Notes: generated by a model from the sequence alone, not told the origin. A stretch of 64,000 nt of DNA from Macrostomum lignano (GCA_002269645.1 NIVC01002467.1:107454-171453), one strand, 5' to 3'. Positions 50,201 through 53,200 are shown, counted from the stretch's first letter. Numbers and translations are program-made.

Positions 50201-53200
50201 AACTGCGCCAAGGATCACCCGTCTAATAAGATTATGGAGTACTACTTTCAGGTGGGTTGTGGCCGTAGCCCAGTGGTCCAGCGCGGCGCTCTGGTGTGCC
50301 AGTGGCCCAGGCTCGATTCCGAATGCAGTCGCATTCATTTTGGGCTGTTAACGCCATTGAGGGCCAACCCCCAAAGCACAGTGAAGTGTACATGCCTAGC
50401 TATAAATAAATTTAGGGCCGTTCTACACTCCTATGGAATGGGACTCCTAGGAGAGGTCACTGAAGCACCTCTGATGAAGGGAACTCATAGGGGACTTACC
50501 TACTTACTTACTACTGACGTGGGGCGCAGGCGCCGCATATAGGCCGCGAGACCCCTATCGCAACCCCAAGGTAAAAGCGACCAAGGATTAACCCTGGGGG
50601 TGCGCCCAGCCCCCGCCAGTAGTCGGCAGGTTCGCAGAGGAGGCATCGGCGACCCTCATCCGGCCGGAGTCCCGGAGGAAGGCGCAAAAGTCACGGATGT
50701 TGTCCGGGGTGGTCAGCTCGTCCATCCGCTGGGGGTGGCCGAGGTATTTGTGCCGTGCCTTGTTGGAGTAAGGGCAGAAGGTGAAGGGATGCTCCGCGGT
50801 CTCCTCTCCTATGCCACAGAAAGGACAGGTGGGAGGGCAGCCGGTTTGCTACGAGATATGTCTCTGGAAGAATCCATGGCCGGTTAGGACCATGCACATC
50901 TTCCTGAGGTCGGTTCTGTTAAGCGTGATCAGATAGTCAGGACTCATAGGGGAGGTCACTGAAGCACCTCTGTCACGATAATGAACTTAGAAGAACCACA
51001 GAGCTATAAATAAAAAATGCCATGTTAATCATTGCCCCCGTCACCGTGACCAGCTGAAGGAGCGGCAGCAGCAGTCGCCCGGCCTTCGCCTGCCGCAAAT
51101 AGTCGGCCTGACAGCCAGTCCAGGCACCGGGCAGGCTCACAACACGGAGGAGGCTATGGATCACGTGCTTGGCCTATGCGCCAGTCTCGACTGTAAACGA
51201 TTAGTTAGCGTGAAAAGCTGCGCGGATTCTTTGCATAAGCACGTGAATAATCCGAGAGTTAAGCTGCATAGCACTGGTAGGAAACAGAGCGACGATGTTC
51301 TACAGTGCTTGGACCTGCTGATGGACCGGGCTGAGCAGGTGGGTATCTTTTTAATCTATCTTTTCTCTATTTTCTCTTGTCTCCAGCAACTTCTCAATCT
51401 TTCGTATCCTCTATCTCTCTGTAGTACCATCTTATCTTTCATGTCTCCTCCCTACCCTCTTGCCTCTTTCCCCTCCATACCCTCTCCCTTCTTACCCCAC
51501 CATGCCCTCTCCCTTCTTACCCCACCATACCCTCTCCCTTCTTACCCCACCATACCCTCTCCCTTCTTACCCCACCATGCCCTCTCCCTTCTTACCCCAC
51601 CATGCCCTCTCCCTTCTTACCCCACCATGCCCTCTCCCTTCTTACCCCACCATACCCTCTCCCTTCTTACCCCACCATGCCCTCTCCCTTCTTACCCCAC
51701 CATGCCCTCTCCCTTCTTACCCCACCATGCCCTCTCCCTTCTTACCCCACCATACCCTCTCCCTTCTTACCCCACCATACCCTCTCCCTTCTTACCCCAC
51801 TGTAGTGCATGCGCCCTTGTCAGTTGGCAGGGCGCGTTGCACTTTGGGGCTGGTTGGGGGGGTTGGCGGGCGTGGCAGGGTCTGGCCCCGGCCGGGCTTT
51901 GCGCGTGCCCCTCCCCAGCCGTGCCCCTGCCCCGTGCTCAGGGCTGGTTGGCTGCGGCCGGGCCAGCTTTGGCGCGGGTGCAGCCCCTCCCCCCTTAGGC
52001 GGGGTTTTGATTGGCTGGGCCGGCGTGGTTTGTTTTGGTGAGCTTAGCCGGTGGGGCCGTCTGCCCCAGGGTTTGGGTGCTATTTATGGTGCGACTCTGG
52101 CTCTTGCCCGCCTCCTGCGTGCTTTTTGTGTTTTGGTGTGCTCCGAGAGTGCAAGCGCGAGACCTGATAAAAGAAACAGCAACATTAGCTACTTCGATAA
52201 AAGAAACAGCAACATTAGCTACTTGGATAAAAGAAACACAATAACCTAATTGAGAAGAGTCTTGGAGAATTAAGAAGAAGTCGGAAACTGCGCTTGAGAC
52301 CTGCGAATAATAAACGGTGAACAGTCATCTGGCCACTGGTAAGCCGCCTGCTGTTTGAGTCCTTTCTTTCCGGGAAGCTTGCTAGGCCGTATTCTTGCCA
52401 GAGCGTCATAACGCCGGGAGACCATATAGCTTCTGTAGTACGGTACCGTTTACCATATATATTGCGTACGCCCTACGGTATAGAGAATAGAAGCACTCGA
52501 GAGTGTCACCACACCTCGAGCCGCAGCGTGAACTCTGAGTGTCACAACACCAGAGGGATCGAATTATTATCGCAGAGCGTCGCCACGCCTGCTCGTCGTA
52601 CTCATAAAAGTACAGACAGAGCGTCACAACACCTGTTATATCACATATAATATATATTGTACTCGGGACTGGGCACCCAAGCCGACCCGGGTTACAACAA
52701 ATTGGCGCCCGAACAGGGACCCTGTCCCCAAAGATTGAAAGTCGGCTCAGTTGCTTTCTATGAAAATTGCTGTCATATTGTGAGCGTTTTTTCTTATTAA
52801 AACGACTGTTGCTTATCGCTTGCGGCTATTGCCCTACCGCAAAAGACATTGATCACGGTGACAGACAACTGATTGGTTATCAGAGATCGATAGCTATCAC
52901 CACCTCAGAGTAAAGAGTAGCAACGGTATTCAGTGACTTCGGCCATGGGTGATCAAGCTATGGACCAACTGATCGATGCGCTGGCTGCGCGCCTCAGAGC
53001 CAACGCCGACCGAGCAGCGCCACGACTCTCGAAGCCGCCCAAGTACATACCAACGATGAATTTCAGCCTATGGCTGCAGAGTTTCAACGAGTACTGCGAG
53101 GCTGTCGGTATAGAAGAAGAAGCCAGGCGGCCGCACCTGATCGGCCTACTCGACCTCACAACAGCCTACGCTGCCGTTGATAAGCTGGACTTGGCAGACG

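Follow-up and report, generated by a model that had tools for sequence, protein, structure and literature searches.

The means by which Ty3/gypsy retrotransposons distinguish their own genomic RNA are poorly defined. The packaging signals of retroviruses, such as the GACG pair SL-C/SL-D of murine leukaemia virus (MLV) and the core signal of human immunodeficiency virus 1 (HIV-1), are leader hairpins which are repeated with a shared loop, lie past the splice donor with palindromes nearby and often pick the unspliced RNA by this position, and they are bound via exposed G by zinc-knuckle nucleocapsids, as described in the sections of the source used here (PMC13736810). In the yeast element Ty3, the 5' end is structured and includes a dimerisation site that is palindromic, but no repeated motif is described for its leader in the part of the account drawn on here, in which its packaging sequences are called not precisely defined (PMC11381356). 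Here we describe an array of five hairpins with a bulged A, H1 to H5, in each long terminal repeat (LTR) of a retrotransposon of the same superfamily, which is located at 51801-61943 of a stretch of 64,000 nucleotides from the flatworm Macrostomum lignano (GCA_002269645.1, NIVC01002467.1:107454-171453; the whole stretch is referred to as the window). Like the retroviral signals, the array is predicted to lie past a donor and has palindromes nearby. It differs from them in having five copies instead of two, A/C-rich loops and a conserved bulged A, and in its predicted position in the unique 5' region (U5), upstream of the primer-binding site (PBS) and hence in both LTRs; moreover, the element is a retrotransposon in which no env was seen.

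All five hairpins consist of a lower stem ending in a G-C pair, a bulged A, an upper stem with the pairs G-C, Y-R, G-C and U-A, and a loop of the type CRYM. H2 (52496-52520; lower stem of 6 bp, bulge A 52502, loop CACC), H3 (52533-52555; 5 bp, A 52538, CACA) and H4 (52572-52592; 4 bp, A 52576, CGCC) are perfectly paired. H1 (52395-52421; A 52402, CATA) has a perfect upper stem on an imperfect lower stem with two purine-purine mismatches, and in H5 (52616-52636; A 52620, CACA) the upper stem contains a single C.A mismatch. The array spans 52395-52636 of the + strand in the 5' LTR (51801-52699; TG...CA, 899 nt), and a second copy at +9244 is found in the 3' LTR (61045-61943, +), with the hairpins repeated identically at 61639-61880. 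Both LTRs share 99.67% identity, and none of the 3/899 differing positions is inside any of the five hairpins. The coordinates and sequences of the hairpins in the initial annotation, as well as their presence in both LTRs, proved correct on re-check. Its claim of a kept bulge and a 4-bp upper stem also stood, but the loop consensus C-R-C-M had to be widened to CRYM due to the loop CATA of H1. The architecture resembles the coat-protein operators of the phages MS2 and PP7, in which a sequence-free lower stem, a single bulged A, a short upper stem and a specific loop are read by a capsid protein. However, the upper stem of the MS2 operator is 2 bp long and carries an ANYA loop, and the PP7 operator has a 6-nt loop, whereas the array combines a 4-bp upper stem with a CRYM tetraloop, and as the proteins are unrelated this is an analogy only.

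The array is supported as a real, selected RNA structure by two-sided changes that spare the bulge. Strict bulged-A hairpins occur three times in the LTR, whereas 5000/5000 dinucleotide shuffles gave at most two, and beyond the LTRs the same strict descriptor yields three scattered matches with other loops in the window. Across the five copies, 41/45 cells (91%) are paired compared to 31-53% in slid registers, two-sided changes are present at 5/9 pairs, and the covariation score is 0.511 vs 0.156 for shuffled sequences, with 0/500 shuffles as high. These counts bear out the initial annotation in that the lower stems vary and yet stay paired (19/20 in register vs 2-7/20 slid). When whole arms were swapped, the true partners were the best of 120 permutations (20/25 vs a mean of 10.6), and RNAalifold, unprompted, recovered the same structure from the five copies, so that the signature of a selected RNA structure seen in that annotation holds. 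As all five copies are paralogues within one LTR, and kinship among them is disregarded by the shuffles, what the counts reveal is selection or a mutation process biased towards pairing, and not function. The retention of the bulge in 5/5 copies speaks against a simple perfection of palindromes. Folding in context supports H2 and H3, with a probability per pair of 0.72-1.0, and in most sequence contexts the upper stems of H1 and H4, but not H5. A covariance model built from the five copies finds, by construction, the ten copies of the LTRs and nothing else in the window (next E 0.08), and Rfam 15 has nothing at gathering threshold for 51700-53100, the only two matches having E values of 5.2 and 6.9. 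The sole match with two adjacent motif cores among bacterial and archaeal genomes, L001 3001-3056, is located in an intergenic gap of an Ilumatobacteraceae genome and is an unrelated 15-nt tandem repeat without lower stems, where the motif core occurs by coincidence. No paper on such a hairpin array was found in a search with little reach into subscription journals. With its 21-25 nt and five occurrences that carry compensatory changes of their own, the motif is an unusually clean candidate, testable by short oligonucleotides.

The position of the array within a transcript can be predicted from the motifs of the LTR. A candidate promoter was found by motif scan at 51998-52087 (+), with a GC box at 51998, a reverse CCAAT at 52010 and TATTTAT at 52081, and the only canonical poly(A) signal AATAAA of the LTR is located at 52309-52314 (+), past which a GT/T-rich tract follows at ~52350-52370. 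AATAAA together with a GT-rich stretch is given as the conserved core of animal Metaviridae LTRs in the part of the source considered here (PMC3601003), and the LTR of the M. lignano family Mlig-id38 has, by eye, the same order ATTGG...TATTTA...AATAAA. Transcription would thus start near 52110 and the border between the repeat region (R) and U5 would lie near 52335, giving a probable layout of the unique 3' region (U3) to ~52110, R to ~52335 and a U5 of ~360 nt that houses the array, about 280-520 nt into the predicted transcript. Furthermore, the + strand has no ATG at 52090-52759 (670 nt; 9.2 expected, 0/2000 shuffles), and likewise none at 52090-52484 (5.5 expected, 1/2000 shuffles as low), whereas CAT, as the control for the - strand, is not depleted over this run. 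As evidence for a long leader the ATG-free run is supportive rather than decisive. Within the predicted R, 52166-52238 is an unstructured 30-nt tandem repeat of 2.4 copies with GATAAAAG.

Just upstream of the array a candidate splice donor is present that went unnoticed in the initial annotation, CTG/GTAAGC at 52336-52344 (+; intron start 52339), which matches 7/9 of the consensus and is one of six GT to do so among the 578 of the element. The candidate acceptor TTTGCAG/ at 59299-59313 (+), the best of 7 YAG in 59200-59330, abuts the ATG of the third open reading frame, ORF3 (59310/59311), and the gene model P0123 of another copy uses the same acceptor as predicted here. The ORF3 ATG is preceded by three ATGs within 181 nt; since the modelled first exon is ATG-free, it would be the first ATG in the spliced mRNA. 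Also new is the complementarity of the H1 5' arm (52393-52409) to 59228-59244 (+) before this acceptor, which is perfect over 17/17 nt. This is the longest non-self complement in the 7,154 nt of unique element sequence, followed by one of 12 nt, and at least 17 nt are reached in 3/1000 shuffles. The H1 arm is located 54 nt past the donor and its complement ends 66 nt before the acceptor, each arm being close to one end of the predicted intron. The 17-bp duplex (-32.4 kcal/mol) and the H1 hairpin (-7.7 kcal/mol) are mutually exclusive. This is what intronic RNA bridges look like, as in Dscam (docker/selector), Nmnat and SF1, where long-range complementarity unites a donor with a distant acceptor and a competing structure exists, according to the portion of the literature cited here (PMC10790352); in contrast to these, one arm here also belongs to one of several repeated hairpins in the leader of a retroelement. 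H1 with its complement is a plausible long-range splicing switch.

ORF3 (59311-60345, +; Pfam DnaJ, E 7e-18) encodes a J-domain protein with HPD motif, an acidic linker and a helical C-terminal domain with GRR-x-W. It is intact in the element with the HPD kept, and in the AlphaFold model the J domain is joined by the acidic linker, which is disordered, to a helical domain modelled with confidence. An exhaustive search revealed four homologues beyond the J domain with 31-52% identity, as well as one identical match, whereas a word-based search with residues 75-344 gave no match. The start Met is common to the homologues P0125 and P0127 (2/4), P0126 has 14 extra residues and P0124 is without J domain. 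Invariant among the homologues are R256, R268, R269 and W271 of an Arg-rich stretch. Fold searches with ORF3 gave J-domain matches only, and the best lead for the C-terminal domain was DnaJ-X, which with a score of 0.85 is a weak lead only. Altogether, the J-domain and DnaJ-X matches suggest that ORF3 may be a captured co-chaperone rather than an RNA adaptor. A literature search that had little reach into subscription journals found no paper on Ty3/gypsy elements with a J-domain ORF. A Cys-rich hydrophobic tail is present only in ORF3 of the window and not in its four homologues.

While the shape of the array is well supported, we infer its job, and a multivalent protein-binding site is a reasonable inference, because a protein site would be expected to have a fixed bulge and loop on a lower stem of free sequence. 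Tentatively, we favour that the array labels the unspliced genomic RNA in a multivalent manner, with Gag as the most likely reader during packaging, and that H1 switches between a hairpin and a splicing bridge. Starting near 52110, transcripts would be spliced from the donor 52339 to the acceptor 59310, by which a short ATG-free exon is joined to ORF3 and the array is removed, and poly(A) addition near 61580 would exclude the 3' array copy from the mature RNA; if the sites are used as predicted, the array is therefore confined to unspliced RNA, which would be its only carrier. Several copies of one protein could dock on the repeated surface of bulge and loop, and a candidate ligand is the product of gag (52945-53865, +), which has a CCHC zinc knuckle (Pfam zf-CCHC, E 8e-8). 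H1 would have two states, the local hairpin or the 17-bp duplex with 59228-59244 that closes a 6,972-nt intron. The duplex would bring donor and acceptor together and favour splicing, and full-length RNA would be favoured when protein is loaded onto the array. Mlig-id38 has by eye no long third ORF and only ~45 nt past AATAAA, which, as one comparison, counts for the favoured model. It is conceivable, although rather doubtful, that the five-unit array with its likeness to phage operators, LTR donor and J-protein gene were gained together by a flatworm Ty3/gypsy lineage, with H1 as switch between a genome mark and 7-kb splicing. In that case, a defined, modular recognition motif for Gag (or ORF3) of an animal retrotransposon would exist without G-rich loops and directly coupled to splice choice. 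If H1 bridges the intron, genome selection would be tied to splicing within one element. RNA-packaging tools could likewise profit from an RNA tag for a retrotransposon capsid that is compact and repeatable, and M. lignano as host offers transgenesis and RNA-seq, as stated in the part of the source used here (PMC12801592).

Several observations weigh against this model of a genome label. The main objection is that the loops of the + strand are G-poor, with 1 G in 20 nt, and hardly offer the exposed guanosines that zinc knuckles bind. The lower stem of H4 is unstable, its probability ranging from 0.01 to 0.99 depending on context, H5 is essentially unpredicted in context (at most 0.09), and the - strand, on which the mismatch of H5 becomes G-U, gives slightly higher stability to isolated H2, H4 and H5. 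The ATG-free window was bounded post hoc, and pol also holds an ATG-free gap of 485 nt. Regarding splicing, P0123 is a poor, chimeric model and shows only that the predictor likes this acceptor, the target 59228-59244 is itself locally structured (-20.8 kcal/mol over 71 nt), and a stem that hides the donor appears in long folds but is missing from the fold of 52296-52430. Moreover, the donor is located ~25 nt past AATAAA in both LTRs and could suppress 3' polyadenylation too, so that an additional structural rule is needed like that of foamy viruses. These likewise have donor and poly(A) signal inside the LTR and at both ends, but with the donor upstream of this signal and not downstream of it, according to the section of the source relied on (PMC3694450). 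The ORF3 mRNA could also arise by spliced-leader trans-splicing at the same acceptor, and transcripts of the Caenorhabditis elegans element Cer1 (PMC3315495) and of cestode LTR elements (PMC4558846) do meet spliced-leader sites, as far as the cited parts of both accounts go.

Among the other explanations, it is unlikely, but worth weighing, that a host RNA-binding protein of the KH family (Nova/Pasilla-type) uses the array as its platform and controls splicing or the suppression of 5' poly(A) addition. With the closing U-A pair open, the hexaloops read TCATAA, TCACCA, TCACAA, TCGCCA and TCACAA, so that 4/5 loops show UCAY, the array begins ~55 nt past the donor, and a YCAY-rich stretch lies toward the other intron end at 58888-59100 (+; 14 YCAY vs 7.5 expected, 0/500 shuffles), which fits the account of NOVA in the part of the source cited (PMC10790352), where it binds clusters of YCAY at either end of an intron and loops the RNA. 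However, this 3' cluster is partly a tandem repeat (35 nt, x2.4), the YCAY enrichment in U5 is insignificant (10 vs 6.7, P 0.08), and H4 is perfect yet has the loop UCGC. To our knowledge, KH binding does not need a conserved bulged A, which counts against such a platform as well. Also unlikely, and slightly more so, is a nuclear export element for the unspliced RNA similar to the Rev response element (RRE), which would be bound by ORF3 made from the spliced mRNA. Precedent comes from Cer1, likewise a Ty3/gypsy element, whose accessory protein CERV is made from a spliced, also SL1 trans-spliced mRNA and has to export the unspliced RNA, although no RNA element is defined for Cer1 in the portion of the account used here (PMC10309623). 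The layout of an element within the predicted intron and an accessory ORF expressed from spliced RNA would fit, and so would the conserved Arg-rich stretch of ORF3. In contrast to CERV and Rev, to which it has no detected likeness, ORF3 is a J-domain protein, and the fold searches with the DnaJ-X lead point to a co-chaperone; however, an export adaptor could also lack homology to Rev, Rec and CERV.

The initial annotation had also considered a TAR-like site at the 5' end of the transcript, with the start just past a TATATAT, and this placement is not supported, because the promoter motifs at 51998, 52010 and 52081, AATAAA at 52309 and the ATG depletion would place the array in U5. The TATATAT does exist, at 52456, and if it drove a start near 52485, H2 would be at the cap, H2-H5 would form R and AATAAA would be in U3 as in human T-cell leukaemia virus 1 (HTLV-1) and Rous sarcoma virus (RSV). 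H2-H4 fold well from such a start, and AATAAA in U3 with a structural bridge is a known design in the part of the source consulted (PMC3694450). However, neither CCAAT nor GC box is found near 52456, the ATG depletion at 52090-52484 would be left unexplained if this stretch were untranscribed, a second ATAT run at 52649 indicates that such runs recur as parts of hairpins, and no role would be left for H1, the donor and the 17-nt complement. An element of the TAR type is moreover one hairpin within R, right at the capped 5' end, whereas the predicted start is ~280 nt upstream of H1, and we regard this reading as improbable. The same holds for a function of the minus strand, as antisense RNA or minus strong-stop DNA, although the loops there (TATG, GGTG, TGTG, GGCG, TGTG) are G-rich and would suit nucleocapsid, and H5 is more stable (RNA -7.5 vs -4.9, DNA -3.3 vs -1.0). 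In context, H4 is lost and H1 weaker on this strand, the regional folding z favours the + strand (-3.08 vs -1.78), and a promoter on the - strand is not evident. Least probable is that the hairpins are incidental to a double-stranded DNA motif GAGYGTCR (bZIP half-site-like) acting as enhancer repeat, or to neutral template switching. The half motif recurs reversed at 59237, and 58965-59064 contains three copies of GCGTCA, as might be the case for a DNA site, but a DNA motif has no need for lower stems that differ and are nevertheless complementary, and template switching should erase the bulge, which all copies keep.

Retroviral packaging signals also comprise a palindromic dimer-initiation site in a loop. 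The spacer between H1 and H2 forms a stem-loop at 52429-52495 (+), a candidate dimerisation site which includes the TATATAT and has one palindrome of 10 nt (52440) and two of 8 nt (52455 and 52464). In U5, 5 palindromes of at least 8 nt are present vs 1.6 expected (P about 0.02, weak); most of the 10-mer is paired (unpaired 0.27), while the AT-only palindrome is open (0.85). Both U5 spacers, 52429-52495 and 52640-52699, are filled by more stem-loops and palindromes, including the AT-only one and a terminal hairpin before the PBS. Loop-loop kissing between the hairpins was considered and is unlikely, with at most 4/6 complementary positions. Two C-to-T differences between the LTRs are located in neighbouring stems and keep U-G pairs, which any such transition would do, and they were hence not counted. 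A strong hairpin (z about -4) opens U3 at 51803-51838 and 61047-61082 and would follow the polypurine tract (PPT) in the RNA; its topology is array-like, with a single bulge, a 4-bp stem and a tetraloop, but the bulge is T and the loop a different one. The stretch 58888-59100 between pol and ORF3 is TCAT-rich with three GCGTCA and may be an RNA-protein cluster or an internal enhancer/promoter.

The assignment of the element to Ty3/gypsy is based on the LTR pair with TG...CA, a 4-bp target-site duplication (CCAC), PBS, PPT, and the order of gag followed by protease (PR), reverse transcriptase (RT), RNase H (RH) and integrase (IN). The insertion is recent. The PBS (52703-52720, +), which we take to be of the tRNA-Lys type, and the PPT (61031-61044, +) were assigned from sequence. 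In gag, Retrotrans_gag and PNMA are below the Pfam cut-off. The pro-pol region (53866-58887, +) encodes, by Pfam, PR, RT, RNase H and IN with Integrase_p58_C, and in this copy it is divided among several frames, the breaks being located near 55218-55287 and 57394-57425. A 30-nt minisatellite of 36 copies is located between gag and protease (53907-54983). At 53817-53865 an open frame of unchanged phase comes after the stop of gag, with two slippery-like heptamers just upstream. The pol resembles, by eye, that of Mlig-id38 (Gmr1/Osvaldo), and the integrase relatives from a protein search have at most 55% identity. Gmr1 sensu stricto does not fit, as it needs the integrase upstream of RT, a feature given in the part of the source used (PMC3601003), whereas the integrase is downstream of RNase H here in the Pfam order. 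For M. lignano, 137 LTR families were counted, six of them with heat-shock elements (HSEs), in the portion of the study drawn on here (PMC12801592); by its expression no canonical HSE is present in the 899-nt LTR, which is thus not among the HSE families, and hairpin and PBS words had no match in its supplement 5 with the long rows truncated. Past ORF3, the 3' untranslated region contains GC-rich tandem repeats with periods of 20, 32 and 41 at 60381-60792.

Tandem repeats make up 41% of the 64-kb window. The host COG4 gene is located at 3534-10141 (-), with an exon 99% identical to M. lignano COG4, and the gene at 12547-14046 (+) is presumably a homologue of AKTIP with UBC fold. The element itself appears to be inserted in sense orientation within an intron of a gene at ~48591-64000, which we assume from motifs in its translations to encode a DExD/H helicase of RIG-I-like appearance, and the donor and AATAAA of the element could truncate or mis-splice the transcript of this helicase gene.

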